A stretch of DNA of 64,000 nucleotides, taken from contig JAGOCP010000002.1 of NCBI GenBank assembly GCA_017998715.1, forward strand, positions 5,429-69,428. Reading direction: 5' to 3'. Shown here one piece after another: positions 2,530 to 49,813 of the stretch (positions within the stretch are counted from its first letter, which is position 1; each line of letters begins with the position of its first letter). A model generated the notes under the pieces. That model made no database searches and was not told the DNA's origin. It worked only from the letters and a program-made list of their open reading frames with translations. Position numbers and translations under genes: made by a program. The stretch comes from Thermoanaerobaculia bacterium. Lineage in GTDB: Bacteria > Acidobacteriota > Thermoanaerobaculia > Multivoradales > JAGPDF01.

Positions 2530-3089
2530 GCAGTCGGCCGTGGGTTTCTCGAGTTATGTGCGGGCGGCAGCCAGCGGCGGAGCTCGGGGCGCGCGCGCGT
2601 ATCCGCCGCCCTGACTCATATCCGTTCGGCCCGCTGCCCTGGATAGTCTTGCAGGGCGGAACAGATGCTCGGTACGCCGGCGCACCGAAAGTCGACATTC
2701 AGGTCGCTGCCGCTACCGGGTCTCGATAGTCCTGTCCTTGTAAGCATCGCCCAAATTGATCTGGGCACCTTGTTTTCCAGAGCGATTGCAACCACCAGTC
2801 GAGGTCTACGCGCCGGCATACGGTCGAGCCAGCCCATGGTGTTCTTGCGCCCATGAGCTGTCGCGCACCAACGCCATGGCGCCAATGATTGGTAGGTTGC
2901 GGATGTCGCGCTGGCCCATTTTCGAGGTCTTGCCGAAGACCCGGACGCCCGGCAGCGGTAACGCAACGAACGGCCGCTTCTGTCCTTGTGGCCGATCCGG
3001 CCGGGCCACTGCAAATGGCGGCTGTCCGCCCATCGCGCCCACCAAGGAGCGCGCCGATCTGGCTCTGCACCCCACCGCGGTCGGATAAT

Positions 3090-3491
3090 TCAGTGGTTTC
3101 CCAACCGCTCGAACTGCCGGCTCCACTCCAACTGGAACCCTTCCAGCAGGGTGTCGAGCTGCAGGTCCACTTGCTGGCGTCCGTCGAGGATCGCCTCCAC
3201 GATCTCCGGCGCTAACAGCGTGAGCCGCAGGATGCCGCTGACGTACGACGGTGCGAGCCGCTCGGCCTGGGCGAGGTCCTCGATCGTCGCATGAACGCCC
3301 TCATCGAGCATCTTCCGCCACCGGAACGCCCGCGCGAGCGCCTTCACCATGGCATTGTCGATCCGCGGCCGTGGCGCCCACTCCGCACCGTCCGGCGTCA
3401 CCACCCGCTTCCGCCCGCCGCGCTTCCTGAATGTCAGCGGGATGTGGACGGTGATCGTCTCGCCGTCGGCCGAGATCGTGGCCCGCTTCAC
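3090..3491 (-). CDS. Conserved hypothetical protein co-transcribed downstream of the serine recombinase
   Basis: 133-aa ORF with realistic composition (MKRATISADGETITVHIPL...SYVSGILRLTLLAPEIVEAILDG). It overlaps the recombinase stop by 4 nt. Confidence 0.5.
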   Translation of the reverse strand: MKRATISADGETITVHIPLTFRKRGGRKRVVTPDGAEWAPRPRIDNAMVKALARAFRWRKMLDEGVHATIEDLAQAERLAPSYVSGILRLTLLAPEIVEAILDGRQQVDLQLDTLLEGFQLEWSRQFERLGNH

Positions 3492-4795
3492 GCTGCTGCC
3501 CTCCTGCTGCCCGCGACCTCACGGACCAGCCCGGCGAGCCCGTTCGGCCTCAGCCTGACCTCGACGCCGTTCATCCGCACCTCGACCCGTTCGACCAGCA
3601 ACTGCACGATCCGCGCCTGCTCGGCCGGGAACAGCTCGTCCCACAGCGGATCGAGCTCGGTGAGAGCCGTCCGCGCCTCGTCTTCGGTGATGTCGTCGGC
3701 TTCGGCCCGCGCCGCGCGCCATGTGCCTACGATGATCTCCGGCTGCCGGAAGATGCCGCGCAGCTGGTCGATCACCGCGGCCTCGATCTCCGCTGCCGGC
3801 ACCCGACCAACCGGACACGCGTCGGGCCCGCGCTTCAACACGTCCTGGCTGACGTAGTAGCGGTAGAGCCGGTTGCCCTTGCGCGTGTGCGTTGGCGACA
3901 TCGCCGCCCCGCTCGGCCCGAAGATCAGCCCCCTCAGCAGCGCCGGCGTCTGTGCCCGGGTGTTCGCCGAACGGGTGCGGACGTTCTCGGCGAGGATCGC
4001 ATGCACCTTGTCCCACAGATCCTGATCGATGATCGCCGCGTGTTCGCCCGGATGCGCCGTCCCCTTGTGCACCGCGAGGCCGAGGTAGGTACGGTTGTTG
4101 AGCAGCTTATAGAGGTAGCCCTTGTCGACCAGCTTGCCGCGCTTGGTGCGAACGGCCTCCCGCCGCAGTTCCCGAGCCAGCACCGTCGCAGAGCCGATGC
4201 TGACGAACCGTTCGAAGATGCTGCGCACGATCGCCGCATCGGGCTCGGACACCACGAGCTTCCGGTCCTTCGCCACGTAGCCGAGCGGGACGTTGCCGCC
4301 CATGAACATGCCCTTCTGTCGCGACGCCCTGATCTTGTCGCGGATGCGCTCGGCGGTGACCTCGCGCTCGAACTGGGCGAAGGAGAGCAGGATGTTGAGC
4401 GTGAGCCGCCCCATCGAGGTCGTGGTGTTGAACGACTGGGTGACCGACACGAAGGTGACGCCGGCGCGGTCGAAGACCTCGACCAGCTTTGAGAAGTCCA
4501 TCAGCGAGCGGCTGAGCCGGTCGATCTTGTAGACCACGACGACGTCGATCAGCCCCTCCTCGATGTCGGCGAGCAGCCGCTTCAGCGCCGGCCGCTCCAG
4601 CGTGCCGCCGGAGAAGCCGCCGTCGTCGTAGGGCTCGCGGATCAGCGCCCATCCCTCGGAGCGCTGGCTGGCGACATACGCCTCGCAGGCCTCGCGCTGG
4701 GCGTGCAGGCTGTTGAACTCCTGCTCCAGCCCCTCCTCGCTGGACTTCCGGGTGTAGACCGCGCAGCGGAGCTTGCGGGTGACGGGCTTCGTCAT
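3488..4795 (-). CDS. Large serine recombinase (resolvase/invertase catalytic domain + recombinase domain + zinc ribbon)
   Basis: MTKPVTRKLRCAVYTRKSSEEGLEQEFNSLHAQREACEAYV is a typical serine-recombinase N-terminus with the catalytic Ser. The long C-terminal recombinase/zinc-ribbon region follows. The ATG at 4795 overlaps the upstream gene stop (ATGA). Confidence 0.85.
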   Translation of the reverse strand: MTKPVTRKLRCAVYTRKSSEEGLEQEFNSLHAQREACEAYVASQRSEGWALIREPYDDGGFSGGTLERPALKRLLADIEEGLIDVVVVYKIDRLSRSLMDFSKLVEVFDRAGVTFVSVTQSFNTTTSMGRLTLNILLSFAQFEREVTAERIRDKIRASRQKGMFMGGNVPLGYVAKDRKLVVSEPDAAIVRSIFERFVSIGSATVLARELRREAVRTKRGKLVDKGYLYKLLNNRTYLGLAVHKGTAHPGEHAAIIDQDLWDKVHAILAENVRTRSANTRAQTPALLRGLIFGPSGAAMSPTHTRKGNRLYRYYVSQDVLKRGPDACPVGRVPAAEIEAAVIDQLRGIFRQPEIIVGTWRAARAEADDITEDEARTALTELDPLWDELFPAEQARIVQLLVERVEVRMNGVEVRLRPNGLAGLVREVAGSRRAAA

Positions 4796-5238
4796 GATGC
4801 ACCGCCCTGCCGCTTGAGGCCCCAGAAGACGAGCCCGTTCCACCTCGTGCCGGTGATCTCGCGGGCGATCGCGGAGAGCGAGCGGTAGGGGCGGCCCTGC
4901 CACTCGTAGCCGTCGGCAAGCACCGTGACCGTGTGCTCGACGCCGCGGTACTCGCGGACCAGCCGGGTCCCGGCGACCGGGCGCGCGTCATGCCGGATGC
5001 GGCGGGTGGCGACGTTGTCGCTGTCGTACTGCTCGCCGAGGATCTCCAGCCGCCGGAGCGTCTCCGGCTTCAGCCCGCCGTAGGCAAGCTCCTGGATGCG
5101 GTAGGCGATGCGATTTTCGAGGTGGCGGCGGTTGAACGGTGGCGGCTCGGTCTCGAACAGCGCGCGCCATTGCGCCTTCAGCTCCGGCATCGGCATGGTC
5201 TTCAGCGCGGCGACGCGCGCGGGGATCGGGTCGGTCAT
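4792..5238 (-). CDS. DUF2924-like protein, the usual partner of large serine recombinases in integrative elements
   Basis: MTDPIPARVAALKTMPMPELKAQWRALFETEPPPFNRRHLENRIAYRIQELAYGGL matches the DUF2924 signature as I recall it. Confidence 0.65.
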   Translation of the reverse strand: MTDPIPARVAALKTMPMPELKAQWRALFETEPPPFNRRHLENRIAYRIQELAYGGLKPETLRRLEILGEQYDSDNVATRRIRHDARPVAGTRLVREYRGVEHTVTVLADGYEWQGRPYRSLSAIAREITGTRWNGLVFWGLKRQGGAS

Positions 5239-5652: not shown

Positions 5653-6387
5653 ATGAACTGCTACATCCGCTCGGTCGAGGTGATTGACCGCACCCTTCCC
5701 GACCTCGCGCCGCTCTTCGACGAGATGCGGGATCGCCTGCGCGACGAGCACGGCGTCACCCGGGCGCGTTACTATCACGCCGTTCCGATCGCCGACGGCG
5801 CCCGCCTTGCTGTGTCCGCCAGCCCGCCGATCCGGGCGCTGGCCGAGGACTACGTCCGCAACCGACGTCACGAGATCGACCACCTGCTGCTCGAGCGCAT
5901 GCGGATTGCCGAGCCGACGGTCTGGGACCGGGAGCGGCGCGACGAAGGCTGCCCGCCGCGGATGCGGGCGTCGCGAGAGCGCTGGGCAAAGCTCACCCAG
6001 GAAGCCATCGGCGCGGGATGGTGGCACGGCTTCGACGTCGCTGCCTTCGGCCCCGGAGGACGACGGGGCCTCTTCAAGATCAACGCCCCGCTCGAGCAGC
6101 CGCTCGGCCGCCGCTACATGGGCGGGGTGCGGCACGTGCTGCACGACTTCCACCTGGCCTATTGCAACGTCGAGCTGGCGGCAGCGCCGAGGATCAGACT
6201 GGCGCCCGGCGACCAGGAGGCGCTCGCTGGCGTCGCCTCCGGTCGCAAGATCGACGTGATCGCCCATGAGCTTGGCATCACCAGCCGCGGGGTCGAGGAG
6301 CGCCTGGCCCGGGCGCGCAAGCTGCTCGGCTGCCGGACGACCCCCGAGGCCGTCGCCAAGGCGGTGGCGCTGGGATTTATTCTCTAG
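5653..6387 (+). CDS. LuxR-family transcriptional regulator (solo), with an N-terminal ligand/autoinducer-binding-like domain and a C-terminal GerE-type HTH
   Basis: C-terminal PGDQEALAGVASGRKIDVIAHELGITSRGVEERLARARKLLGCRT is a LuxR-type HTH. No luxI-like gene is nearby. Confidence 0.65.
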   Translation: MNCYIRSVEVIDRTLPDLAPLFDEMRDRLRDEHGVTRARYYHAVPIADGARLAVSASPPIRALAEDYVRNRRHEIDHLLLERMRIAEPTVWDRERRDEGCPPRMRASRERWAKLTQEAIGAGWWHGFDVAAFGPGGRRGLFKINAPLEQPLGRRYMGGVRHVLHDFHLAYCNVELAAAPRIRLAPGDQEALAGVASGRKIDVIAHELGITSRGVEERLARARKLLGCRTTPEAVAKAVALGFIL

Positions 6388-6553: not shown

Positions 6554-6892
6554 TCAGCCTGGACCTTCTGCTCGACCCTTTCGGGCCTCTATGTCGCGCA
6601 TGGCGGCGAAGACGCGCTCCGCCGTCTCGACCGGCAGGCGCCGGAAGTCCCCGTAGATCACGAAGTCGAAGCTGATGTCGTGCTCGCGGCGAAAATGCCG
6701 AATGACGTCGATGGACGGATAGGCCTTGGCGGTCTCGTAGCTGGCATAGCTCGAGCTCGGCATGTCGAGGGCGGCGGCCATCGTCTTCTGGTCGACGCCG
6801 AGCGCCATTCGGGCGGCGCGCAGCCGGAACGACGCCGCCTCGATCGAGGTGTCGGCGAAGCGCGCCAGCGCGTGCCTCTCGTCCTGCTGCAT
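6554..6892 (-). CDS. XRE-family (Cro/CI-type) HTH repressor-like protein
   Basis: HTH_3 motif LRAARMALGVDQKTMAAALDMPSSSYASYETAKAYPSID. It is divergent from a rightward early operon. Confidence 0.7.
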   Translation of the reverse strand: MQQDERHALARFADTSIEAASFRLRAARMALGVDQKTMAAALDMPSSSYASYETAKAYPSIDVIRHFRREHDISFDFVIYGDFRRLPVETAERVFAAMRDIEARKGRAEGPG

Positions 6893-7050
6893 CCTGATCC
6901 TGCCTTCCTGCTCCCCGATCGCCGGCACTTTCCGGGTTTTTCGAACAAAATGCGAGCGCGAGATTTTCACATCTTGTTGATTGCAGAATCTGGGATAATG
7001 ATTCGGCATCGCAAACGCTTCATCCCCCGCAACTTCGTTCGAGAGCACCC
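6893..7050. promoter_or_regulatory. Divergent promoter/operator region between the cI-like gene and the early operon; contains the palindrome GATTGCAGAATC and a GATAAT -10-like box
   Basis: Sequence inspection, and position between divergent regulatory genes. Confidence 0.35.
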
Positions 7051-7392
7051 ATGGCGAAAACGCCTACGATCCGGATTCCCCGACCCCGCGTCAGCGAGAT
7101 CGAGCTCTGCGCCTGGGTGGCGCAGGCCCAGCCCGGCGCAAGCCTCACCTATCACCGCGGCTATCTCGCGCTCGACCGCACCGCCTTCGGCCCCTTCGCC
7201 GACACGCCGGAGCGGGCGGCCATCGGCCTCCTCGGCGCCCGCGCCCACGACCTCGCCGAGCGCGGCCTCGTCCACCTGGTGCAGCACCGGCACGGACCGG
7301 AGGACTACAGCTACATCGCCGTCGCCCGAGCCCGCGGGAAGAAGGCGCTCCCCGACTTCGCGGCCCACGTCATCACCGAGGAGGCCGCGTAA
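7051..7392 (+). CDS. Hypothetical phage early protein
   Basis: ORF with coding-like composition, first gene of the rightward operon. No recognisable motif. Confidence 0.45.
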   Translation: MAKTPTIRIPRPRVSEIELCAWVAQAQPGASLTYHRGYLALDRTAFGPFADTPERAAIGLLGARAHDLAERGLVHLVQHRHGPEDYSYIAVARARGKKALPDFAAHVITEEAA

Positions 7393-7878
7393 GTGGACAC
7401 CCCCGCCAACCGTCCCCGGCTCGGGGACCTGCCGACGATGCCGATCGGCGAGATCGCGGCGCTTCCCGCCGATCTCCTCGCTGTCCTGCAGGAGGAGGCG
7501 GAGGACGCCGCGAAGGCCGCGCGTTCGCTCGCCGACTGGCTGAACGGCGCCATCGCGCTCCGCTACGCCGACCGCGCCGCCGCGGCGCGCCGCGCCGAAG
7601 GCAAGGACACCGGCACCGTCCGCCTCAACGACGACGAGGTCACGGTGGTCGCCGACCTGCCGAAGCGGATCGAGTGGGATCAGACGAAGCTCGGCGAGAT
7701 GGTCGCGCGCATCCGCGCGGCCGGGGACGACCCGGCCGAGTATGTCGAGACCAGCTTCAAGGTCTCCGAGCGGAAGTACGGCGCCTGGCCGGCGGCGATC
7801 CGTGATGGCTTCGAGGCCGCTCGCACCGTCAGGCCGGGTAAGCCGACGTTCCGGCTGCAGCTCGGGGAGGTGCGGTGA
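7393..7878 (+). CDS. Hypothetical phage early protein
   Basis: ORF contiguous with its neighbours (ATG follows the upstream stop). Confidence 0.45.
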   Translation: MDTPANRPRLGDLPTMPIGEIAALPADLLAVLQEEAEDAAKAARSLADWLNGAIALRYADRAAAARRAEGKDTGTVRLNDDEVTVVADLPKRIEWDQTKLGEMVARIRAAGDDPAEYVETSFKVSERKYGAWPAAIRDGFEAARTVRPGKPTFRLQLGEVR

Positions 7879-8771
7879 TGGCTCTCCCGATCATCACCGC
7901 CGACCAGCGTCTGGCCGAGCCGCGGGGCATCAAGGGCTGCATCTTCGGCAGGTCCGGGCTCGGCAAGACCAGCCTGCTCTGGACGCTCAACGCCTCGACG
8001 ACGCTCTTCTTCGACCTCGAAGCGGGTGATCTCGCGATCGAGGGCTGGGAAGGCGACGCGATCCGCCCGCGTACCTGGACCGAGTGCCGCGACTTCGCCG
8101 TCTTCATCGGCGGACCGAACCCGGCGCTCCGGAAGGACCAGTCCTACAGCCAGGCGCATTACGACGCGGTCTGCACGAAGTTCGGCGATCCCGCCGTCCT
8201 CGACCGCTACGACACCATCTTCATCGACTCGATCACCGTCGCCGGCCGGCTCTGCTTCCAGTGGTGCAAGGGCCAGCCCGAGGCCACCTCCGAGAAGACC
8301 GGCAAGCCGGACGTGCGCGGCGCCTACGGGCTGCACGGCCGCGAGATGATCGGCTGGCTCACCCACCTGCAGCACACCCGGGCGAAGAACGTCTGGTTCG
8401 TCGGAATCCTCGACGAGCGGCTCGACGACTTCAATCGCAAGGTGTTCTCGCCGCAGATCGACGGATCAAAAACCGGCCTCGAGCTGCCCGGGATCGTCGA
8501 CCAGGTGATCACCATGGCGGAGATCCCGGACGCGAACGGCAAGGCCGGCCGCGCCTTCGTCTGCCAGACCCTGAACCCCTGGGGCTTCCCGGCCAAGGAC
8601 CGCTCGGGCCGTCTCGACATGGTCGAGGCGCCGCATCTCGGCCGGCTGATGGAGAAGGTGCACGGGCCGGTGCAGCCGGCGTCGCTGCGCCTGACCTACA
8701 CACCCCTCGCGCTTCCCGCGCCCCCCGCCGGCCCCGCGGCCGACGACAGCAATCCTTCCCATGGCAACTGA
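7875..8771 (+). CDS. RecA-like AAA ATPase (AAA_24 / Sak4-like recombination protein)
   Basis: Walker A GRSGLGKTSLLWTL and Walker B-like IFIDSITVAG motifs. AAA_24 proteins are typical of phage replication/recombination modules. Confidence 0.7.
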   Translation: MMALPIITADQRLAEPRGIKGCIFGRSGLGKTSLLWTLNASTTLFFDLEAGDLAIEGWEGDAIRPRTWTECRDFAVFIGGPNPALRKDQSYSQAHYDAVCTKFGDPAVLDRYDTIFIDSITVAGRLCFQWCKGQPEATSEKTGKPDVRGAYGLHGREMIGWLTHLQHTRAKNVWFVGILDERLDDFNRKVFSPQIDGSKTGLELPGIVDQVITMAEIPDANGKAGRAFVCQTLNPWGFPAKDRSGRLDMVEAPHLGRLMEKVHGPVQPASLRLTYTPLALPAPPAGPAADDSNPSHGN

Positions 8772-9381
8772 CAGGAGCCTCCCCGTGACCGGACTCTGGA
8801 ACGACTTCAACTCGGCGCCGGACAACGCCAACGTCATCCCGAAGGGCACGCTCGCCAAGGTGCGTCTGACCATCCGCCCGGGCGGCTTCGACGACCCGAC
8901 GCAGGGCTGGACCGGCGGCTACGCCACCCGCGCCACCAGCGGCGCGGTCTACCTCAACGGCGAGTTCACGGTGCTCGAAGGCCCCTACGCCCGGCGCAAG
9001 GTCTTCACGCTGATCGGGCTCTACAGCCCCAAGGGCCCGGACTGGGCGAACAAGGGCCGGAGCCTCGTCCGCGGCATGCTGAACTCGGCGCGCGGCATCT
9101 CGGCCAAGGATGTCTCGCCGCACGCGCAGGCGGCGCGGCGCATCTCCGGCTTCGCCGATCTCGACGGGCTCGAGTTCGTCGCGCGCATCGACATCGGCAG
9201 CGACACCGACGGCGACGACAAGAACGAGATCCGGAGCGCGGTGACCCCGGATCATCGCGACTATGCCCAGTTCATGGCCGGCGTCGCGGCGGCCCCTGCA
9301 ACGGCCGCCTACACCGCGCCGGCCGCGCCGCGGCCGCAGCCGGGCCCCGGCGCTCCGGTGCGGCCCGCCTGGGCACAGTAG
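8761..9381 (+). CDS. Hypothetical phage protein (possibly a DUF669-like partner of the Sak4-type ATPase)
   Basis: Its position immediately after the AAA_24 gene. Only weak recollected similarity to DUF669. Confidence 0.4.
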   Translation: MATDRSLPVTGLWNDFNSAPDNANVIPKGTLAKVRLTIRPGGFDDPTQGWTGGYATRATSGAVYLNGEFTVLEGPYARRKVFTLIGLYSPKGPDWANKGRSLVRGMLNSARGISAKDVSPHAQAARRISGFADLDGLEFVARIDIGSDTDGDDKNEIRSAVTPDHRDYAQFMAGVAAAPATAAYTAPAAPRPQPGPGAPVRPAWAQ

Positions 9382-9385
9382 GCCG

Positions 9386-11056
9386 ATGCGACTTCGCCCG
9401 CGTCAGACCACCTTCGTGGAGCGCAGCCTCGCTGCGCTTCGCGAGCGCGGCAACACGCTCGGCGTCGCCCCGACCGGAGCCGGAAAGACGATCATGCTCT
9501 CGGCGGTCACTGGCACGCTGGTAACGGGGAGCGATGCGAAGGCCTGCGTGCTGGCGCACCGCGACGAGCTGACCCAGCAGAACCGCGCGAAGTTTACCCG
9601 GGTCCACCCCGGGGTCGCGACCTCGGTGGTCAACGCTGCGGGCAAGTCCTGGGCAGGCCAGGTCACCTTCGCCATGGTCCCGACGCTCACCCGCGCCGCG
9701 GCCCTCGCGGCGATGCCGGGGCTCGACCTGCTGGTGATCGACGAGGCGCACCACGCCGTCGCCGGCAGCTACCGCCGCATCATCGACCGGGCGCGCGACG
9801 CCAATCCCGCCTGCCGCATCTTCGGCGTCACCGCCACGCCGAACCGCGGCGACCGTAAGGGCCTGCGCGAGATCTTCGACAACGTCGCCGACCAGGTCCG
9901 ACTCGGCGAGCTGATCGCCTCCGGCCACCTGGTGCCGCCGCGCACCTTCATCATCGATGTCGGGGTGCAGGAGAAACTGCGCACGGTGCGCCGGCTCGCT
10001 GCCGACTACGATATGGCCGAGGTGGCGCGGATCATGAACCGCGCCCCGGTCACCGACGAGGTGATCCGGCACTGGAAGGAGAAGGCCGCCGACCGTCCGA
10101 CGGTCGTGTTCTGCTCCACGGTCGCCCATGCCGAGAACGTCGGCGCGGCGTTCAACGCGGCCGGGGTGCCGGCGGCAGTCGTGCATGGCGATCTCGACAT
10201 CGACGCCCGCCGGCGGCTGCTCGCGGCCTACGCCGCGGGCGATGTCCGGGTGATCGTCAACGTCGCGGTTCTCACCGAGGGCTGGGATCATCCGCCGACC
10301 TCCTGCGTCGTGCTGCTCCGGCCGAGCTCGGCCAAGTCGACGATGATCCAGATGGTCGGGCGCGGGCTGCGCACCGTCGATCCGGCCGAGCACCCGGGTG
10401 TCGTGAAGACCGACTGCATCGTGCTCGACTTCGGCGCATCGAGCCTGACCCACGGCACGCTCGAGCAGGACGTCGATCTCGACGGCCGCGAGCCGGTGGA
10501 GGGTGTCGCGCCGACCCGCAACTGTCCGGAGTGCGAAGCGGAGATCCCGCTCGCCTGCACCGAGTGCCCGATCTGCGGCGCCGAACTCGTGCGTGAAGGC
10601 GCCGAGCCGATCGCCGGGTTCATCATGACCGAGATCGACCTTCTGAAGCGTTCGAGCTTCGAATGGGTCGACCTCTTCGCCGACGACGCGGCGCTGATGG
10701 CGAACGGCTTCACCGCCTGGGGCGGCATCTTCTGCCTCGGCGGGCGCTGGCATGCGGTGGGCGGGGCGAAGGGCGAGAGCCCGCGGCTCCTCGGCATCGG
10801 CGAGCGCCCGGTCTGCCTAGCGCAGGCGGACGACTGGCTGAACGCGCACGAGTCCGACGAGAGCGCCTACAAGACCCGCAGCTGGCTCAGCCAGTCCGTG
10901 ACCGAGAGGCAGCTGCAGTACCTCCCCCGGGAGCGCCGGCAGGACTTCGGCCTGACCCGCTACCACGCCTCGGCGCTGATCACCTTCCGCTTCAACCGGC
11001 GCGAGATCAGGCAGCTCGTCGGCCAGGCGACGCCGCTGCCGGGACGGGCGGCGTGA
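9386..11056 (+). CDS. Superfamily-2 DEAD/DEAH-box helicase with a C-terminal zinc ribbon
   Basis: Motif I GVAPTGAGKT, motif II VIDEAHH, motif III VTATP, and helicase C-domain VIVNVAVLTEGWDHP...MVGRGLR. CPECEAEIPLACTECPICG forms the zinc ribbon. Confidence 0.85.
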   Translation: MRLRPRQTTFVERSLAALRERGNTLGVAPTGAGKTIMLSAVTGTLVTGSDAKACVLAHRDELTQQNRAKFTRVHPGVATSVVNAAGKSWAGQVTFAMVPTLTRAAALAAMPGLDLLVIDEAHHAVAGSYRRIIDRARDANPACRIFGVTATPNRGDRKGLREIFDNVADQVRLGELIASGHLVPPRTFIIDVGVQEKLRTVRRLAADYDMAEVARIMNRAPVTDEVIRHWKEKAADRPTVVFCSTVAHAENVGAAFNAAGVPAAVVHGDLDIDARRRLLAAYAAGDVRVIVNVAVLTEGWDHPPTSCVVLLRPSSAKSTMIQMVGRGLRTVDPAEHPGVVKTDCIVLDFGASSLTHGTLEQDVDLDGREPVEGVAPTRNCPECEAEIPLACTECPICGAELVREGAEPIAGFIMTEIDLLKRSSFEWVDLFADDAALMANGFTAWGGIFCLGGRWHAVGGAKGESPRLLGIGERPVCLAQADDWLNAHESDESAYKTRSWLSQSVTERQLQYLPRERRQDFGLTRYHASALITFRFNRREIRQLVGQATPLPGRAA

Positions 11057-11059
11057 ACC

Positions 11060-11458
11060 ATGGCAGCACCAGCATCCGTCCGCGATCGGCGGTTGCTCTG
11101 GCATCCGCGGCCTTGCCTCTGCGCGGTCTGCGCCGGCCCCGCCACGGGGTTCGGCTTCTTCGATCCGCACGACCGAACCCGCCCGCGTCCGCGGCGCTGG
11201 TTCTGCTCGATGACCTGCCAGGCGCTCTACGCCCGCAAAGCACGCAAAGGACTGATCATGATCGACTTCACCGAAGAGGAAACCCAGGCGCTGCCCGCCG
11301 TGATGCGCGCGCTCGCGCCCGAGCTGGAGCGGATCGGCTGGGACCGGCCGCTCGGGCAGCTCACCGCGAACGACATGCACCGGCTGATCGTCACGACCGT
11401 CGAGGCGTTCCGCGCCGAGATGGCGGCGATCGCCGCCGACGCGGAGATCCCGTTCTGA
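11060..11458 (+). CDS. Hypothetical protein with a Cys-rich N-terminal segment (CLCAVC...CSMTC)
   Basis: ORF tightly packed between the helicase and nuclease genes. Could be two small genes. Confidence 0.4.
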   Translation: MAAPASVRDRRLLWHPRPCLCAVCAGPATGFGFFDPHDRTRPRPRRWFCSMTCQALYARKARKGLIMIDFTEEETQALPAVMRALAPELERIGWDRPLGQLTANDMHRLIVTTVEAFRAEMAAIAADAEIPF

Positions 11459-12216
11459 TGCTGGACTTCAATCCCCGGCCATCGATGGCGGACCGCGTCA
11501 ACACGCTGGTCGATGCCGCGCTCGAGGCCGAGCGGGCGGCCACACCGCCGCGCGACTATCTCGGCGGCTCGCGCCTCGGGCACGCCTGCGAGCGGGCGCT
11601 GCAGTTCGAGTTCACCGCGACGCCGAAGGACGAGGGCGCCGACTTCGCCGGCCAGACCCTGCGCATCTTCGCCACCGGCCACGCCCTCGAAGACCTGGCG
11701 ATCCTCTGGCTGCGCGCCGCCGGGCTCGATCTCTATACCCGTAAGGCCGACGGCGGGCAGTTCGGCTTCTCGGTCGCCGGCGGCCGCGTCCGCGGACACG
11801 TCGACGGCGTCATCGCCGCCGCACCCGCCGCGCTCGGTCTCCGGGTTCCCGCCCTCTGGGAATGCAAGACCATGAACGCGAAGAACTGGCGCGAGACCGT
11901 CTCCAAGGGCATGCGCGTAGCCAAACCGGTCTACGCCGCGCAGATCGCGCTCTATCAGGCCTACATGGAGCCGACGGTCCCGGGCATTTCCGTCGCCCCG
12001 GCGCTCTTCACCGCGATCAACAAGGACACCGCCGAGCTCCACCACGAGCTCGTGCCCTTCGACGCCGCCCTCGCGCAGCGCATGTCCGATCGCGCCGTGC
12101 GCATCCTGCGGGCGACCGACGCGGGCGAGCTGCTGCCCCGCATCGCCGCCACCCGCGACTTCCTCGACTGCCGCTTCTGCCCCTGGGCCGAGCGCTGCTG
12201 GAGCCTGCCTCGGTGA
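11458..12216 (+). CDS. PD-(D/E)XK nuclease of the Cas4/RecB-like family (phage exonuclease)
   Basis: The catalytic region HVDGVI...LWECKT gives a D...ExK pattern, and the Cys pattern C...CxxCx5C (GHAC ... CRFCPWAERC) is characteristic of Cas4-type Fe-S nucleases. Confidence 0.7.
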   Translation: MLDFNPRPSMADRVNTLVDAALEAERAATPPRDYLGGSRLGHACERALQFEFTATPKDEGADFAGQTLRIFATGHALEDLAILWLRAAGLDLYTRKADGGQFGFSVAGGRVRGHVDGVIAAAPAALGLRVPALWECKTMNAKNWRETVSKGMRVAKPVYAAQIALYQAYMEPTVPGISVAPALFTAINKDTAELHHELVPFDAALAQRMSDRAVRILRATDAGELLPRIAATRDFLDCRFCPWAERCWSLPR

Positions 12217-14528
12217 CCGACGACACCATCGTCCACTTCAACCCGTGGCGCGACTTCAACGATGCGCCCATCGACGATGATCCGTTCGGCATCGAGCCCG
12301 ACGCCGGCCAGATCGCCACCTTCCTCGACGTGGTGTTCGGGTATTGCGACGGGCTGATCCCGGTGCGCGGCTTCGTCGACAAGGGTCAGGGCAAGGACGG
12401 CAAGCCGCACAACGTCTGGATCGACGCCGACGCCAGCGCCCCGGAAAAGCTCGCCACCTTCGCCACCTGGGCCTGGCGCGAGGGCGCCGCGGTCTATGTG
12501 ATCCCCGGCACCGTCGCGGAGCCCGGCCAGGCGAAGTCGGCCGACGTGCTGCAGATGCAGGCGGTCGTCGTCGATCTCGACGCCGGCGACATCGCCGCCA
12601 AGCTCGACCACCTCGTCCGGCATCTCGGCCGCCCGACGCTCGTCATCGAGAGCGGCGGGCGCACGCCCGAGGGCGATCTCAAGCTGCATCTCTGGTGGAA
12701 GCTCACCGAGCCGGCCGAGGGCGCGGACCTGGCGCGGCTCTGCCGGCTGCGCGGCGAGATCGCGCTGAAGGTCGGCGGCGACACGCATTTCCGCTCGGCG
12801 CACCAGCCGATCCGCGTCGCGGGCAGCGTCTACCACAAGGGCGGCTTCCAGCGCATCGTCGAGATTCGCGAGCACAATTCCGTCGAGCTCGAGCTCGACG
12901 ACCTCGCCGAGCTCGTCGCCGAGATGCCGCCGCTCGCAGGCCTGGGCGCCGGGTCCGCCGCCGACGCTGGCGAGAAGCCGTCGCTCGACGCGGTGCTCAC
13001 CACCCCGGTCCACGCCGGCGGTGGCGACGACTGGACCCGCTTCGCCGGCGCCAGCGCCGCCATCGGCCACTACATCCGCCAGGTCCACGAGGGACGGATC
13101 ACCCCCGACGACGGCTGGGAAGCGATCCGCGGCTACAATGCCGCCATGCTGCGTCCGAGCTGGCCGGAGGAGCGGCTGAAGGCCGAGGCCGACCGGCTCT
13201 GGGGCAAGCACATCGAGAAGAACGGGCCGCCCCTTCTCCGCGCGCCAGCCAGCGCGACGTCCGCCGCTATGCCCGCCTTCACCCTCGGCGCGCTGCTCGA
13301 CGACGTGACGCCGATGCCCGAGGACATCATCGCGCCCCGCGTGCTGACCCCGGGCGGGCTCCTCGTGCTCGGCGGCGCGCCGAAGGTCGGCAAGAGCGAC
13401 TTCCTGATCAGCTGGCTCGTGCACATGGCCGCGGGCGTGCCCTTCCTCGGCTTCACCCCGCCGCGGCCGCTGCGGGTGTTCTATCTGCAGGCGGAGATCC
13501 AGTACCACTACCTCCGCGAACGGTTGCAGGCGATCCGGCTCGACGCACGCGTCATTGCCGCCGCACGCGACACCTTCGTCGCCACGCCGAAGCTGAAGCT
13601 GCTCCTCGACGGTCAGGGCTGCGCCCAGGCCGCCGCCGCAATCGCCGAGGCCTTCCCCGAGGCGCCCGTCGACATTCTCTGCATCGACCCGATCCGCAAC
13701 GTCTTCGACGGCGGCCCGGACGGCGCCGGCGAGAACGACAACGCGGCGATGATGTTCTTCCTCAAGGACCGGGTCGAGGTTCTGCGCGAGGCGGTGAACC
13801 CGGACTGCGGCGTGATCCTCGCCCACCACACCAAGAAGCTCGGCAAGCAGCAGGTGAAGGACGACCCGTTCCTCGCGCTCTCCGGCGCCAGCGCGCTCCG
13901 CGGCTTCTACACCTCCGGGCTGATCATGCACCGGCCCGACGAGGAGAGGAGCGAGCGGCGGCTGGAGATCGAGCTCCGCAACGGGCCGGCGCTCGCGTCG
14001 AAGCTGATCGACAAGGTAGATGGGCGCTGGGTCGAGCTCGACCGCGACCATGAGCGACTGGTGCGCCAGGACGTCGGCGCCCGGCTCGATGCCGAGCGCT
14101 CGCGCAAGCACGACGTCATCCTTCAGACGATCTTCTCGGAGGCACAGGAAGGCCGGCTCTACCTCGGCCTGCAGTTCGCCGAGAAGTTCGAGAACACCGG
14201 CGGGCTCGGCAGCAAGCACACCATACGGGAGCGGCTGGGTGTGCTGGCGACGAACGGCTTCGTGAAGTTCCGCCGCGATGCGCGCGACTTCGGATACCCG
14301 GTGACCCGCTCGCATTTCGGCTACCTCTGCGTCGAGGGCATGATCTTCGGAGCGCCTGTCGAGATCGTCGACCCCGACACCGGCGAGATCACCGAAGACG
14401 TCCGTCCGGTGCACCCCAGCCACTACAAATGCTCGCAGTCGGGCGCCTGCCTCGACGTCGAAAACCCGTCGGTCTGGGTCTATCCCGCCGGCTCCGAAGA
14501 CGACCTCACTCATATGAGTGAGGCCTGA
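12213..14528 (+). CDS. Replicative primase-helicase (N-terminal primase/polymerase-like domain + AAA_25/DnaB-like ATPase)
   Basis: Walker A LVLGGAPKVGKSDFLISWL and downstream RecA-fold motifs. GTG start overlaps the upstream stop (GTGA). Large N-terminal domain is typical of phage prim-pol/RepA-like initiators. Confidence 0.75.
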   Translation: MTDDTIVHFNPWRDFNDAPIDDDPFGIEPDAGQIATFLDVVFGYCDGLIPVRGFVDKGQGKDGKPHNVWIDADASAPEKLATFATWAWREGAAVYVIPGTVAEPGQAKSADVLQMQAVVVDLDAGDIAAKLDHLVRHLGRPTLVIESGGRTPEGDLKLHLWWKLTEPAEGADLARLCRLRGEIALKVGGDTHFRSAHQPIRVAGSVYHKGGFQRIVEIREHNSVELELDDLAELVAEMPPLAGLGAGSAADAGEKPSLDAVLTTPVHAGGGDDWTRFAGASAAIGHYIRQVHEGRITPDDGWEAIRGYNAAMLRPSWPEERLKAEADRLWGKHIEKNGPPLLRAPASATSAAMPAFTLGALLDDVTPMPEDIIAPRVLTPGGLLVLGGAPKVGKSDFLISWLVHMAAGVPFLGFTPPRPLRVFYLQAEIQYHYLRERLQAIRLDARVIAAARDTFVATPKLKLLLDGQGCAQAAAAIAEAFPEAPVDILCIDPIRNVFDGGPDGAGENDNAAMMFFLKDRVEVLREAVNPDCGVILAHHTKKLGKQQVKDDPFLALSGASALRGFYTSGLIMHRPDEERSERRLEIELRNGPALASKLIDKVDGRWVELDRDHERLVRQDVGARLDAERSRKHDVILQTIFSEAQEGRLYLGLQFAEKFENTGGLGSKHTIRERLGVLATNGFVKFRRDARDFGYPVTRSHFGYLCVEGMIFGAPVEIVDPDTGEITEDVRPVHPSHYKCSQSGACLDVENPSVWVYPAGSEDDLTHMSEA

Positions 14529-16728: not shown

Positions 16729-16752
16729 TCGAGACGGCGGTCGTTCCACGGA

Positions 16753-19619: not shown

Positions 19620-19626
19620 CCCTGCC

Positions 19627-34512: not shown

Positions 34513-34537
34513 GCCCGCTGGTCGAAGGCCGGGACCG

Positions 34538-35881: not shown

Positions 35882-35883
35882 CC

Positions 35884-38697: not shown

Positions 38698-38698
38698 C

Positions 38699-39675: not shown

Positions 39676-39798
39676 GCTCATCGGCCTCGCGGCTCGGCTG
39701 CGCTGCGGCGACGCCGATCCGTGCCGCCTCTTCCGTCACCGGATGCGGGTCGGCCTCGCCGTCGCCGCCCTGGTCCTGCTCCTCTCGCTGCTCAGGTA
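39667..39798 (+). CDS. Small single-TM membrane protein (43 aa; holin partner or spanin-like)
   Basis: MRELIGLAARLRCGDADPCRLFRHRMRVGLAVAALVLLLSLLR. Below the ORF-track size cut-off, found by hand translation. Confidence 0.3.
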
Positions 39799-39806
39799 AT
39801 CTCTCC

Positions 39807-40466
39807 ATGATCATGACCGACCGGGGGCTATTGGCCCTCACCCGGCACGAAGGCATCGTGCCGGCTCCCTATCTCGACGTGAAACAGGTCTGGACCTTCG
39901 GCGTCGGCCACACGGCGGCGGCGGGCGCGCCCGATCCCGCCCGGCTGCCGCGCGGCATGCCGGCCGATCTCGACGCCGGCATCCGCGAGGCGCTTCGGCT
40001 GTTCCGCGTCGACCTCGGCCGCTACGAGGCGGAGGTCCTGCGCGCCGTGACCGTGCCGCTCGCGCCCCACGAGTTCGATGCGCTGGTGTCCTTCCACTTC
40101 AACACCGGCGCGATCGCCCGGGCGGCGCTGACAAGGGCCCTCAACGCCGGCGACCGGGCCGGTGCGGGCGCGGCGTTCATGAACTGGCTGCGACCGGCCA
40201 GCCTGCGCCAGCGTCGCGAGGCCGAGCGCGATCTCTTCCTGCACGGGCGCTACCCCGAGGGGCCAATTCCGGTCTGGGCCGCCGATGCTCACGGCGAGGT
40301 CGACTTCTCGCGGCCGGTGCACCGGTTGACCGAGCCGCAAGCGCTGGCGCTGCTGCGGTCCGCGCCTGCAGCCGAACCGGCGCCAAAGGTCGCGGCCGCC
40401 TCCCTGCCGGGCCGCTGGCTCGCCGCGCTGCTCGCTTCCCTTTCCGCCGCCTTCCAACGGAGCTGA
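39807..40466 (+). CDS. Endolysin, GH24 phage lysozyme family
   Basis: LALTRHEGIVPAPYLDVKQVWTFGVGHT matches the EG..L.AY.D..G.WTIG.GH lysozyme motif with the catalytic Glu. Confidence 0.8.
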   Translation: MIMTDRGLLALTRHEGIVPAPYLDVKQVWTFGVGHTAAAGAPDPARLPRGMPADLDAGIREALRLFRVDLGRYEAEVLRAVTVPLAPHEFDALVSFHFNTGAIARAALTRALNAGDRAGAGAAFMNWLRPASLRQRREAERDLFLHGRYPEGPIPVWAADAHGEVDFSRPVHRLTEPQALALLRSAPAAEPAPKVAAASLPGRWLAALLASLSAAFQRS

Positions 40467-40470
40467 TCCC

Positions 40471-40707
40471 ATGCGCTACGTGCTTCCGACGTCCCTGACC
40501 TGGTGGGCGGGCCTCGCCGCGATCCTGATCGGGCTCCTCGCGCTGGCGCTGCCCGAGCACGGGCCGCTCGGCGAGCTCGCCGGAGTGATCGCCCAGCTGA
40601 TCGGCGCCAACGACGCGGCGCCGGCGACGCTGATCACCCTCGGCCTCGGGCTCATCGGCCTGCGCGACCGGCTGGAGCGGGCGATCCTGAGCCCCGAGAA
40701 GCGATGA
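40471..40707 (+). CDS. Small membrane protein (lysis-associated?)
   Basis: 78 aa with a strongly hydrophobic N-terminal half. Confidence 0.4.
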   Translation: MRYVLPTSLTWWAGLAAILIGLLALALPEHGPLGELAGVIAQLIGANDAAPATLITLGLGLIGLRDRLERAILSPEKR

Positions 40708-41588
40708 AGACGCTGTCGGCGGCGCTGCAGGCGCATCTCGACGGCGGCGCGACGACGCTCGCCTGGTGCTGGCGGATCGAACGCAGCGATGGCGTCGTCT
40801 TCGGCTTCACCGACCACGACCGCGAGCTGGAGTTTGGCGACGTCACCTACGAGCCCGACTCCGGCTTCGCCGCGTCGGAGATCCGATCCGGCACCGACCT
40901 CGCCGTCGACGCCCAGGACGCCGAGGGCGGGCTGACCTCGGACACCATCACCGAGACCGACATCCTCGACGGCCGCTGGGACAACGCCGCCGTCGAGGTC
41001 TGGCGGGTGAACTGGAGCACGGTCGGCCAGCGGGTGCTGATGCGTCGCGGCGCCATCGGCCAGGTTCGGCGCGGCCGGCTTGCCTTCGTCGCCGAGGTCC
41101 GATCGCTGGCGCACGTGCTGAACCAGACGGTCGGGCGCACCTTTCAGCACGCCTGCGACGCCGAGCTCGGCGACGCCCGTTGCGGCGTCGATCTCGACGA
41201 TTCGGCGTTCAAGGCGACCGGGTCGGTCACCAGCGTGACCGGCGACCGGAGTTTCACAGCCTCCGGACTCGGCGGCTTCGCCGCCGGCTGGTTCGCCCTC
41301 GGCCGGCTGACCTGGGCCAGCGGCCCGAATGCCGATCGCATCGCGGAGGTGACAGGCCACGATGTCGTCGCCGGTGCGCGGCGGCTGACGCTGCTCGAGG
41401 CGCCGGTGCGACCCATCGCCGTGGGCCACGACTTCGTCGTTCGCGCCGGCTGCGACAAGCGGCTGGAGACCTGCCGCGACCGCTTCGCCAACGTCGTGAA
41501 CTTCCGCGGCTTCCCGCACATCCCCGGCCAGGACACCGTGGTGCGCTACCCGAACCGCGGAGACGCCAACGCGGGAGATGTCCTGTGA
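40704..41588 (+). CDS. Tail hub protein (DUF2163 + phage BR0599-type C-domain; GTA gp13-like)
   Basis: MKTLSAALQAHLDGGATTLAWCWRIERSDGVVFGFTDHDRELEFGDVTYEP is the DUF2163 signature. C-terminal Cys-rich RFANVVNFRGFPHIPG matches the BR0599 type. Confidence 0.85.
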   Translation: MKTLSAALQAHLDGGATTLAWCWRIERSDGVVFGFTDHDRELEFGDVTYEPDSGFAASEIRSGTDLAVDAQDAEGGLTSDTITETDILDGRWDNAAVEVWRVNWSTVGQRVLMRRGAIGQVRRGRLAFVAEVRSLAHVLNQTVGRTFQHACDAELGDARCGVDLDDSAFKATGSVTSVTGDRSFTASGLGGFAAGWFALGRLTWASGPNADRIAEVTGHDVVAGARRLTLLEAPVRPIAVGHDFVVRAGCDKRLETCRDRFANVVNFRGFPHIPGQDTVVRYPNRGDANAGDVL

Positions 41589-42019
41589 CTGCTGCCGATC
41601 CTGCGGTCGTCGTTGCCGCCGCCCGCGGCTGGCTCGGCACGCCCTATCATGATCAGGCGAGCGTGCGCGGCGTCGGCAGCGACTGCCTCGGACTCGTCCG
41701 CGGGGTCTGGCGCGAGCTCTACGGCCCCGAGCCGATGCCGATCCCGCCCTACAGCCGCGACTGGGGCGAGACGGGCACCCTGGAGGTGTTGGCAGAGGCG
41801 GCCCGGTCGGCCATGCCGGAACTGTCGCCGACCGAGCTTCTGCCCGGCGCGCTGCTGCTCTTCCGCATGCGCACCGGCGCTCTCGCCAAGCACTGCGGCA
41901 TCGTCACCGAGCCCGACCGGTTCATCCATGCCTACGAGCGCACGGGCGTCGTCGAGGTTCCGCTCGACCCCGCCTGGCGCCGGCGCGTCGCCTTTGCCTT
42001 CCTGTTCCCGGAGCAGTGA
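41585..42019 (+). CDS. NlpC/P60 family cell-wall peptidase (GTA gp14-like)
   Basis: GWLGTPYHDQASVRGVGSDCLGLVRGVWREL has the catalytic Cys. His follows in AKHCGIV...FIHA. Confidence 0.85.
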   Translation: MTAADPAVVVAAARGWLGTPYHDQASVRGVGSDCLGLVRGVWRELYGPEPMPIPPYSRDWGETGTLEVLAEAARSAMPELSPTELLPGALLLFRMRTGALAKHCGIVTEPDRFIHAYERTGVVEVPLDPAWRRRVAFAFLFPEQ

Positions 42020-42024
42020 TTGGC

Positions 42025-42984
42025 TCAGGCGAGCTGCTCGAGGAATCCCTCCACCGCCGCGAAGACTTCTTCGTTGCGCCCGACCCAGACGTGGCCGCCG
42101 CTGGGGAAGCTGACCAGCTCTGCGCCGGGGACCGACGCCGCGATGTGCCGCGCGGCGTCGAGGGTCTCGAAGCGGTCGTCCGCAAGCGAAAGCGCCAGCG
42201 TCGGCGCCCGAATCGTCGCGAGCGCCATCGGCTCCGGCGAGCCCGCGAGCTTGCCGTCGTTCAGGAGCCCGCGGGCGCGGTCGCTGACCGGGAGGATGTG
42301 ATGCAGGATCGCGCGGACCCGCGCCTGCTCGGCCGGGCTGGCGGCGTGCACCAACTTGGGGTCGGTCGCGAGCAAGGTGCCGATCATCGCGTCCTCGGCC
42401 GTCATCATGCCGAGCCAGAACAGGAAGTCCGAGCGCAGGCCGTAGGCGATGATCGCCTCCGCGAGCGCGTTCGGCGGCCGCGGCGGCGGGCGGTTCGGCG
42501 CGAAGGCCGCCGGCACCAGCGCGACCAGCGCCGCGCAGCGGTCTGGATGGCGGATGGCGAAGGCCATCGCCGAGAGCGCGCCGGCGGAGCCGCCGATGAT
42601 CGGCGCCCGGTCGATCCCGAGATGGTCGAGGAGGTCGACGAACGCGTCCGCCTGGTTCTCCGAGGACGGGTTATCGGGGAAGTCGGAGCGCAGGTAGCCG
42701 AAGCGCGAGGGCGCGATGACCTGCCAACCGGCGGCGACCAGCGGCTCCGCGAACGCCAGCCCCTGGTCGAAGCCGCCGCCGGTGCCGTGGATCATCAGGA
42801 CCAGGGGGCCGGACCCGGCGACCGCATACTCCATCGTTCCGAAGCGGCTCGCGAAGACCTCGCTGCGGCCACGGGTTCGGGCCCGCGCCGCGGCGATGTC
42901 GCGGGCGTAGGCGCGCCACGTTACGCCGCCCGCGAGGGCGGCAACGCCGAGCAGCCCGAGCCCGAGTACCGTCCGCCGCCGCAT
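42025..42984 (-). CDS. Secreted alpha/beta hydrolase (moron, antisense inside the tail module)
   Basis: Tat/Sec-like signal MRRRTVLGLGLLGVAALA, HG motif (LVLMIHGTGGG), nucleophile GGSAG. Confidence 0.8.
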   Translation of the reverse strand: MRRRTVLGLGLLGVAALAGGVTWRAYARDIAAARARTRGRSEVFASRFGTMEYAVAGSGPLVLMIHGTGGGFDQGLAFAEPLVAAGWQVIAPSRFGYLRSDFPDNPSSENQADAFVDLLDHLGIDRAPIIGGSAGALSAMAFAIRHPDRCAALVALVPAAFAPNRPPPRPPNALAEAIIAYGLRSDFLFWLGMMTAEDAMIGTLLATDPKLVHAASPAEQARVRAILHHILPVSDRARGLLNDGKLAGSPEPMALATIRAPTLALSLADDRFETLDAARHIAASVPGAELVSFPSGGHVWVGRNEEVFAAVEGFLEQLA

Positions 42985-48924: not shown

Positions 48925-48988
48925 GCCGACCCCGGGGGGCCACCAGCCGACGCGGATCTTCGACGCTCGGCCACATTCCCGCGAAAGG

Positions 48989-49285
48989 ATGATCGTCATG
49001 ACCCCGCCTCGCCACGACGCGGCCGTCCGCCTGTCCGACCTCGAGCTCGAAGGAATGCTGGAGCGCGCCGCCGAGGAAGGCGCGCGCCGGGCGCTCTCCG
49101 ACGTCGGGCTCGGTGGCAAGGACGCCGTGCTGACCATCCACGACATGCGCTCGCTGCTCGAGTGCATCCAGTTCGTGCGGCGTACTGCGGTGCAGACCGC
49201 CGTGCACGTCATCACCACCGGCGCGCTGATCGCGCTCCTGACCGGGATCGCGATGAAGCTGCGCTGGTTCGGACCGAACCCATGA
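48989..49285 (+). CDS. Hypothetical small protein with a C-terminal TM helix (last prophage gene before the right junction)
   Basis: 98-aa ORF with a hydrophobic C-terminus HVITTGALIALLTGIAMKL. Confidence 0.4.
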   Translation: MIVMTPPRHDAAVRLSDLELEGMLERAAEEGARRALSDVGLGGKDAVLTIHDMRSLLECIQFVRRTAVQTAVHVITTGALIALLTGIAMKLRWFGPNP

Positions 49286-49813
49286 GCGCGGGGAACGCGC
49301 GAGCGGCTCTCTCGATTTCTCGAAGAGAACGTCGTGATCTTCAGCGTCGCGCTCTCGCCCCCGGAGTGCGCCGCCATCGACACGCTAGCGGTTCGCACTG
49401 GGCCACTTCGCGTATCGTGGCGCCTCCCGGTTACACCGCGCGGCCCCCTAGCTACGTCTTCATCCTCCCGCAACGGGCGCCCGTCGCCGCTCCCTACGCG
49501 ATCCGTCATCGCCACTTTTTGTTGCTTCGCACGGCCTGACGTGAGGTTCCTCCAGAGTGTGGATAGGCGCCGCAGGTTGTCCCCTTTCGGCTCCGAAGCG
49601 TGACCCTTGAATCGCGTCCCAACGTTCTGCCTTTCCAGAGGAAGTGAGGGCCGAGCCGGGATTACAGTTTGACGCTTGTGGGGGGTCACCCGGCACGCCG
49701 ATCTACACGGCAGGTGACCTTGAGCGGTCCGGCGAAGGCCCGGCCGAACAGACCGGCGGCACCGAACGCGAGGACCGCTTTGGAAGTGACGGACAAGGCG
49801 CACTCCGATGCGC

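Follow-up and report, generated by a model that had tools for sequence, protein, structure and literature searches.

Gene content of the element

We analysed a stretch of 64,000 nt (positions 5,429 to 69,428 of contig JAGOCP010000002.1, assembly GCA_017998715.1, deposited as Thermoanaerobaculia bacterium), which is referred to as the window. It contains a phage-like element that extends from about position 3032 to about position 49290 and thus comprises about 46.3 kb. The window has a G+C content of about 70%, and open reading frames (ORFs) were selected by their G+C content at the third codon position (GC3). The selected ORFs were scanned against Pfam, PHROGs, NCBIfam and PADLOC. As seen in Table 1, genes for integration, immunity, replication, methylation, packaging, virion formation and lysis were found, in agreement with an original prediction, made from the sequence letters alone, that the element is a phage rather than a gene transfer agent (GTA). 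All genes named in that prediction were recovered with strong Pfam support, except that the match of the NlpC/P60 peptidase is weak and that TerS was recognised by PHROG. We consider it very likely that the element is a temperate siphovirus prophage residing in an Amaricoccus replicon and belonging to a very common family of alphaproteobacterial prophages.

Table 1. Features of the element and of its left flank (positions refer to the window).
Feature	Position	Strand	Evidence
Host flank up to the left junction	2530..3031	.	Amaricoccus sequence identity
Integration cassette (3 genes)	3090..5238	-	Pfam, PHROGs
g4, ParB-HTH-like accessory protein	3090-3491	-	phrog_14161/phrog_11806 matches within cassette
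Large serine recombinase, 435 aa	3488-4795	-	Resolvase 4e-39, Recombinase 6e-14, Zn_ribbon_recom 4e-7
DUF2924 protein	4792-5238	-	Pfam 6.6e-51
Distant LuxR-family regulator, autoinducer-binding-like N-terminus and HTH	5653..6387	+	Autoind_bind 3e-4 (below threshold), Sigma70_r4_2 1e-3
CI-like HTH_3 repressor	6554..6928	-	HTH_3 8.6e-5; weak repressor PHROG match; divergent from early operon
Early/replication operon	7051..16267	+	Pfam, PHROGs
Low-GC cargo slot: 86-aa uncharacterised protein, HxlR regulator (-), GFA-family protein (+)	16468..17646	.	HxlR 2.9e-21, GFA 1.1e-20
ParB-nuclease/N6_N4 DNA methylase fusion, second DNA methylase, MerR-like regulator	18264..20675	+	phrog_498/620, phrog_757
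TerS and gpA-type TerL	22240..24757	+	TerS phrog_57; GpA_ATPase 4.6e-95, GpA_nuclease 1.6e-94
PRiA4_ORF3-family protein, antisense between TerL and gpW	24758..25372	-	PF07929 2.4e-59
Lambda-order head	25417..29503	+	gpW-like adaptor, portal, ClpP-type protease, gpD, gpE
Head-tail joining: FII-like Phage_attach and DUF6441 (g40)	29500..30476	+	Pfam
Cargo slot A: GST-like (-), relic g40 3' end, alpha/beta hydrolase (-), OmpR/CadC-type regulator (+)	30451..34043	.	low GC
Tail terminator, tail tube, tail assembly chaperone, DUF7697	34090..36548	+	phrog_4204, phrog_313; Phage_tube_2 1.1e-51
Cargo slot B: 136-aa protein, antisense before tube gene	34538..34948	-	no significant family match
Tape measure gene, split by 1-nt deletion	36541..38696	+	first frame 36541-37236, second frame to 38696
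Distal tail protein (DUF2460, RcGTA g12 homolog)	38693..39325	+	PF09343 1.8e-89
Lysis cassette: membrane protein, 43-aa membrane peptide, lysozyme, 78-aa membrane protein	39322..40707	+	Phage_lysozyme 3.4e-22; phrog_7 endolysin
Baseplate hub (Gp84_N, former DUF2163, and BR0599; RcGTA g13 homolog) and peptidase	40704..42019	+	Pfam
NlpC/P60 peptidase (g14-like), start refined	41585-42019	+	weak: 20.4 bits vs cut-off 23
Cargo slot D: alpha/beta hydrolase, signal-like N-terminus, antisense	42025..42984	-	Abhydrolase_1 3.7e-21
Megatron, DUF2793 fibre, DUF6127 protein; right phage end	43035..49285	+	Pfam, PHROG

The recombinase combines all three domains of large serine recombinases in one protein and gave CcrB/XisF-like matches; its gene lies about 0.45 kb from the left junction. 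More than 589 relatives of this recombinase are present in IMG/VR. In all 80 loci that were retrieved from there it is paired with the DUF2924 gene, g4 is present as well in 76 of the 80, and most of these loci keep the same replication genes beside the cassette. The early operon comprises genes for an AAA_24 ATPase, a helicase, a DUF6511 protein, a Cas4-type exonuclease, a primase/helicase (AAA_25), a RuvC-like resolvase, and DUF6378 and DUF6362 proteins.

Between positions 22240 and 29811 the genes follow the order TerS, gpA, W, portal B, protease, D, E and FII, each with the corresponding Pfam or PHROG family, which bears out the proposed lambda order of the head genes. Phage lambda shares this order, the TerS of the element being Nu1-like, and several lambda-linked Pfam families recur in the element (GpA, Phage_portal_2, HDPD, Phage_cap_E, Phage_attach, Tape_meas_lam_C). 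In contrast to lambda, the protease was scored by the CLP_protease model, identity is low and the tail tip is not of the J type. Pfam E-values were 1.5e-111 for the lambda-family portal, 1.7e-30 for the ClpP-type protease, 5e-31 for the gpD decoration protein and 5e-77 for capsid E. The best solved-structure match of the portal is the lambda portal B (8K38, 1.4e-26), and the head proteins together matched best to lambda portal gpB, other phage capsids and ClpP proteases. Among the 60 best of their 116 solved-structure matches there is no chain of the Rhodobacter capsulatus GTA (RcGTA). ARAGORN reported a tRNA-Gly(GCC) at 27603-27684, within the ClpP-type protease gene; as Rfam gives no tRNA there, the call is most likely false.

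All genes expected for a virion were found, the tape-measure gene being frameshifted. The megatron (1325 aa) is a homolog of RcGTA g15 (GTA_TIM 2.9e-154, with Phage-tail_3 and Rcc01698_C). The DUF2793 tail fibre is Rcc00171-like (Pfam 2.7e-32; phrog_13925 over the full length), and its N-terminus matches the fibre of roseophage R4C among solved structures. The lysis cassette sits within the baseplate module, between distal tail protein and hub. It has the same position in a subclade of the relatives (L119, L121, L122, L126, L127 and L133) and is absent there in L135, L124, L125, L128, L129 and the R. capsulatus phage RcKemmy. Brucella phage BiPBO1, which gave a lysozyme match, was rejected as a relative, its architecture being unrelated. 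About 1,900 strong homologs, most of them in Rhodobacterales, were obtained for the tape measure, which led to the close relatives L133-L136, which are 83-91% identical to the element in nucleotide sequence over the tail.

Junctions with host DNA and integrity of the prophage

The gene for a GntR/FCD regulator in the left flank was used as query in a scan of one genome per species, and Amaricoccus was the closest genus; judged by this flank, the host is Amaricoccus. The type strain of A. macauensis, DSM 101730 (L035), is 98% identical to window positions 1-3037, a metagenome-assembled genome (MAG) of Amaricoccus (L004) is 95.5% identical to positions 1-3031, and both carry different DNA beyond. 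Positions 2530-3031 are conserved in four other Amaricoccus sequences. Of the extent originally proposed (2600-49300), the left end therefore has to be moved inward, since 2530-3031 is host DNA, while the right end stands, just after 49285. The left junction lies at about 3031-3037, with an uncertainty of about 3 nt; the alignment puts the break directly 3' of ...GGCTGTCCGCCC, at window position 3031. At the right end, nucleotide homology with prophages in L017 and L135 stops at 49279-49285, which coincides with the stop codon of the DUF6127 gene.

The window, L035, the MAG loci L004 and L131, and L132 are identical up to 3031 and then show four different continuations. The fourth, in L132, was found by a metagenome scan with the last 25 conserved nt of the flank. 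The equivalent junction positions are 3024-3037 in the window, about 11304 in L035, about 11289 in L004 and about 474 in L132. Past the junction, the type strain has RepC and VirB1-B4 (a type IV secretion system region), and MAG L004 has an MTase/SRAP/ParE/TIR island that includes a gene for a DUF4942 protein. No prophage gene occurs in the type strain over the following 9.5 kb, and none of 35 related loci from Amaricoccus, Paracoccus and other genera has the element at this place. The identical junction, followed by g4 and the recombinase at 99.8% identity, recurs in L002, an independent run (SRR31161434). We looked for the same genes at the same locus in genomes sharing the flank and found them absent in the 98%-identical type strain. 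Because the type strain carries different DNA past the junction, the element is to be regarded as a mobile insertion and not as a domesticated cluster.

Since different mobile elements border the left junction, the site directly after GGCTGTCCGCCC looks like a hot spot of insertion or recombination. In the wastewater genus Amaricoccus, at least four different mobile elements abut one and the same host nucleotide here. An ORF at 2806-3126 (-) was ruled out as a disrupted target gene: none of the variants contains an ORF of greater length, and L132 has an in-frame stop. Homologs of left-flank genes (D-lactate dehydrogenase, GntR/FCD regulator) are located on L008, the 296-kb plasmid unnamed1 of Amaricoccus sp. 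B4 (NZ_CP171226.1), and for this reason the window may stem from a plasmid or chromid rather than from a chromosome.

Several observations weigh against the view that the element is a temperate prophage. attB, attP and attR are not definable. Direct and inverted similarity between the left junction and positions 49286-49815 is at chance level only, and a conserved arm downstream of g4, sought in 59 relatives, likewise gave chance-level matches only. For the right flank, no relative showed synteny; none of the four continuations, which came from the genome scan with the flank regulator and the metagenome scan with the 25-nt junction, matches the right flank of the window. No clean empty site was seen, the DNA past the left junction being itself mobile in the other genomes. 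The scores for the repressor and the LuxR-family regulator are weak. Finally, nucleotide alignment with five relatives revealed that one base is missing in the tape-measure gene at about position 37110, after ...ATCGCAAT, in the context GCAAT followed by TCGCG and outside any long homopolymer.

This 1-nt deletion, which had not been noticed in the original prediction, separates the N-terminal third of the tape measure (phrog_8462) from the rest. Seven relatives have an uninterrupted tape-measure ORF of 700-840 codons. With the base restored, the product would have 718 aa, exactly the length of intact homologs that share 91-95% identity with it. A slippery sequence is not evident at the break. 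Since the gene is frameshifted, the function of the prophage as sequenced is doubtful and a normal tail is not expected. The element had been described as a full temperate phage; this is correct for its gene content, which is complete, and doubtful for intact function.

These data raise the question of whether the element is a cryptic, decaying prophage, in which the frameshift is real and which forms no infectious particles but persists carrying its cargo and perhaps superinfection immunity. We rate this as quite conceivable, somewhat below an even chance. It is favoured by the context of the deletion and the intact tape measures of the relatives, and also by clear decay in L134 and L136, which lost parts of the megatron. 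However, the deletion is the only lesion seen in 46 kb, and all other structural genes align with those of the relatives over their full length. Furthermore, no second copy of the frameshifted allele was found by exact-protein look-ups; these covered the truncated tape-measure ORF, DUF2460, DUF7697, DUF6127 and the PepSY gene and gave no match. In L133, the closest relative, the genes for megatron and fibre are both broken up into several frames (16504-22157), which is typical of assembly error and suggests that this assembly is error-prone. As L133 shows several such breaks, an assembly error is plausible for the single frameshift of the window. Judged from the sequence, either a recent inactivating mutation or an assembly error may plausibly account for it. 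L134 represents this prophage lineage in a decayed state: at 12856-18127 it carries two GDPD genes, one phosphodiesterase gene and a fragment of a tyrosine integrase instead of the megatron.

Cargo genes and their positions

The unusually high cargo load that had been claimed for the element was confirmed, although the number of credible host-type genes is 10 and not about 12; most of them are antisense to the late operon. Two further candidates were rejected: ORF 31179-31412 (-) is an artefact antisense to a relic g40 3' end, and ORF 17761-17994 has poor coding statistics. The antisense orientation implies separate transcription of most cargo genes. A scan for promoter and terminator consensus sites found them no more numerous than in shuffled sequence. 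PADLOC gave no match to a known defence system for any of the 10 cargo proteins. Lysogenic conversion by the cargo would be plausible.

The gene for the LuxR-like protein is placed between the integrase cassette and the repressor. In addition to the matches listed in Table 1, the protein scored 6.8e-9 with TIGR03541 and 0.05 with TraR, and no homolog was present in the 80 IMG/VR relatives. It could possibly provide a quorum-sensing input. The slot at 16468-17646 has a G+C content of 0.647, compared to about 0.71 elsewhere, and a GC3 of 0.79-0.89. The PRiA4_ORF3-family protein has no PHROG or PADLOC match, and its gene is absent between TerL and W in L049 and RcKemmy. Slot A comprises 3.6 kb with a G+C content of 0.64 and a GC3 of 0.71-0.73; its regulator is a membrane protein with a winged HTH (wHTH) and TPR. 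Looking at single genes, GC3 is 0.71-0.73 for g41, g43 and g44 and 0.79-0.81 for g21 and g23, compared to about 0.90-0.95 for the neighbours, while g22, g33, g46 and g58 show no deviation.

Comparison to the close relatives revealed cargo slots at fixed positions with differing content, a feature that was not part of the original prediction. In the same positions L133 has genes for LysR, LysE and an FMN-binding protein, L134 for SRAP, BLUF and CIA30, L135 for a hydrolase, an SDR and an AraC regulator, and L136 for a phasin and a TetR regulator. For each of g33, g41-g44, g46 and g58 there is at least one relative in which both flanking genes are present and the gene itself is missing or replaced. 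Small antisense genes around the tube gene are also found in close relatives: the slot B protein has an 86% homolog in the same place in L134 and is absent in L133. Slot D, between peptidase and megatron, harbours an 82% homolog in L133 and a hydrolase in L135, and is empty in L136 (91% nucleotide identity), in 11 IMG/VR relatives and in RcKemmy.

Slot A contains, at 31202-31321, a partial duplicate with 85% identity to the 3' end of g40 (DUF6441; 30311-30430), and the GST gene thus lies between two g40 ends. Relics of the ends of the flanking phage genes g40 or g45 are present inside the slot in L133, L134 and L136 as well. The block g43-g44-g45 (32059-34487) has 83% nucleotide identity to another prophage, L096. 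These findings point to exchange and stacking of cargo by recombination between related phages at conserved slot borders, and the g40 relic would be a recombination scar that hints at how the swap proceeds.

In a more general form, the late virion operon of this Rhodobacterales prophage lineage would have few fixed cargo slots: one behind DUF6441, others on both sides of the tube gene, and one between peptidase and megatron. Regulator-plus-enzyme cassettes, mostly antisense, would be swapped and stacked in them by recombination at conserved gene ends, of which relic copies stay behind. We put this forward as a tentative idea that is less likely than not. If true, the late operon would serve as a shuttle for host-adaptive genes, and a LuxR-type receptor beside the immunity region could tie the decision between lysis and lysogeny to quorum sensing.

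An origin of the low-GC block (30.45-34.05 kb) as a separate mobile element, such as a transposon or small island, that inserted into the prophage is improbable. Such an origin would fit the low G+C content (0.64) and GC3 (0.71-0.73 versus 0.90-0.95 in the neighbours), and the two genes that the block separates are direct neighbours in RcKemmy and L099. However, the block showed neither a transposase or integrase nor terminal inverted repeats, four close relatives have different cargo in this slot, the g40/g45 relic copies lie within the slot in the window and in L133, L134 and L136, and g43-g44-g45 are common to prophage L096.

Relation to isolated phages and RcGTA, and the right flank

TerL (63%) and the megatron (59-61%) both found their best matches in isolated R. 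capsulatus phages of the RcC cluster, the best hits of the two proteins lying at 60-64%. RcKemmy (MW677517), which belongs to RcC together with RcDormio, RcBaka and others, is collinear with the element from TerS to the DUF2793 fibre. Both have the order gpA TerL, gpW, lambda-family portal, FII-like protein, DUF6441, terminator, tube, chaperones, tape measure, DUF2460, hub, peptidase, GTA_TIM megatron and DUF2793 fibre. Identity to RcKemmy is 63% for TerL, 66% for the distal tail protein, 62% for the hub and 59% for the megatron. By tblastn, 17 structural genes are collinear at 36-66% amino-acid identity, and about 19 genes were matched altogether, which corresponds to about 34% of the roughly 56 genes in the window and about 28% of the 69 genes of RcKemmy. 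Phages are assigned to one cluster when they share about 35% or more of their gene families. The element is related to RcC in its structural half only and probably stands outside this cluster. Unlike the element, the RcC phages have a capsid-protease fusion in place of ClpP, gpD and gpE, lysis genes after the fibre, no annotated integrase, a different early region and a late operon without cargo.

It has been published that RcC phages and RcGTA have these neighbouring tail genes in common (PMC8601537). We compared the element to the solved RcGTA chains (PDB 6TBA/6TEH; PMC7296036). The distal tail protein Rcc01695 is 56% identical to that of the element, the hub chain 6tba_7A is matched at 3.5e-65, and the megatron 6tba_8A aligns from end to end (E=0, residues 1-1323). 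The element also has a fibre of the same type as the RcGTA-associated DUF2793 fibre Rcc00171 (PMC5026251). Thus the g12-g15 baseplate genes of RcGTA are present, the g14-like peptidase by a weak match; this peptidase gave no RcGTA match by sequence among the solved chains. Terminator, tube, chaperones and tape measure did not match any RcGTA chain. A GTA-type tail, as proposed earlier, is consequently correct for baseplate and fibre and does not apply to these other tail genes. In total about 5 genes are shared with RcGTA, all of them tail-tip genes, and wherever both comparisons were made they proved closer to the RcC phages than to RcGTA.

A similar tail tip is found in bona fide phages. Roseophages vB_DshS-R4C (PDB 8GTC) and RDJLphi1 have the same block of distal tail protein, hub, megatron and a fibre annotated as 'ribonuclease III', and the baseplate of the element also matches solved R4C proteins. 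In RDJLphi1 the DUF2793 gene directly follows the g12-g15 homologs (PMC5026251), and the structure of the R4C baseplate including the 'megatron' was solved (PMC10276861). This group is more distant to the element, with megatrons about 40-43% identical (RDJL Phi 1, vB_DshS-R5C) and other head and early genes. Altogether, homologs of the GTA_TIM megatron are present in 150 phage records.

The combination of a lambda-type head and a GTA-type tail had been highlighted as a hybrid. It is not special, as the same head front and baseplate are collinear in RcC phages and sharing of these tail genes has been published (PMC8601537, PMC5026251). The collinear RcC phages, the 150 megatron records and the many IMG/VR relatives instead characterise it as a standard architecture. 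Nucleotide homology with L133, L135 and L136 begins at 29501, the start of the FII-like gene. Upstream of this gene L133 and L135 have a capsid-protease fusion and a cement protein, as in RcKemmy, and the trio of ClpP, gpD and gpE is common to the window and the IMG/VR locus L049. Since tail homology starts at 29501 and the protease/D/E trio is swapped, the module joint lies inside the head region and not between a 'lambda head' and a 'GTA tail'.

The data do not support the claim that the element documents the lineage that gave rise to GTA tails: only about 5 RcGTA genes are present, richer prophages have been published (PMC11409702), and the direction of descent is not polarised. The alphaproteobacterial prophages vB_MseS-P1 and LC1-LC5 of Methylobacterium nodulans have 12-14 RcGTA homologs including head genes, and prophages of this type were used as evidence for a phage origin of RcGTA (PMC11409702). 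With about 5 homologs, all of the tail tip, the element is a weaker witness for GTA ancestry. It represents one more prophage of a very large recognised group and does not change what is known on the origin of GTAs. Its value is comparative: together with its relatives it marks where host-type genes are swapped in a conserved head-tail operon.

That the element is itself a GTA or another anciently domesticated, phage-derived cluster is extremely unlikely, since the close homology of its baseplate proteins to RcGTA g12, g13 and g15 and its Rcc00171-like fibre are outweighed by an integrase cassette, a repressor, a full replication module, methylases and TerS, by head, portal and TerL of lambda/gpA type, by a size three times that of the 14-kb RcGTA cluster (PMC8601537, table 3), by a type-strain locus that lacks the element, and by cargo and modules that differ between close relatives.

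For the temperate prophage the following life cycle is inferred, as are cargo expression, the recombination mechanism and any remaining activity of the element. The large serine recombinase with its DUF2924 and ParB-HTH-like partners would insert the phage 0.5 kb downstream of the lactate-regulator gene, and the CI-like repressor would maintain lysogeny. Upon induction, the rightward early operon (helicase, primase/helicase, Cas4-type exonuclease, RuvC) is predicted to copy the genome, and the two methylases may modify the phage DNA. TerS and the gpA-type TerL would then fill a lambda-type head built with portal B, the ClpP-type protease, gpD and gpE. The tail should end in an RcGTA-type baseplate of distal tail protein, hub, peptidase, megatron and DUF2793 fibre, and particles would be released by the lysozyme cassette embedded in the baseplate module. 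About ten host-type genes in fixed slots were probably gained by recombination between related phages at the slot borders.

The right flank of the element (49814-64000) is a metal and oxyanion resistance region. It comprises genes for a histidine kinase, a response regulator, PepSY, cytochrome b561, VIT1, a P-type ATPase, ArsR-ArsC-ACR3, ChrB and ChrA, with a chrB-a RNA motif at 62196-62281, upstream of chrB. The long ORF at 56582-59869 (-) has a sulfatase active-site motif (LCSPSRAALLTGR) that was read directly from its translation.

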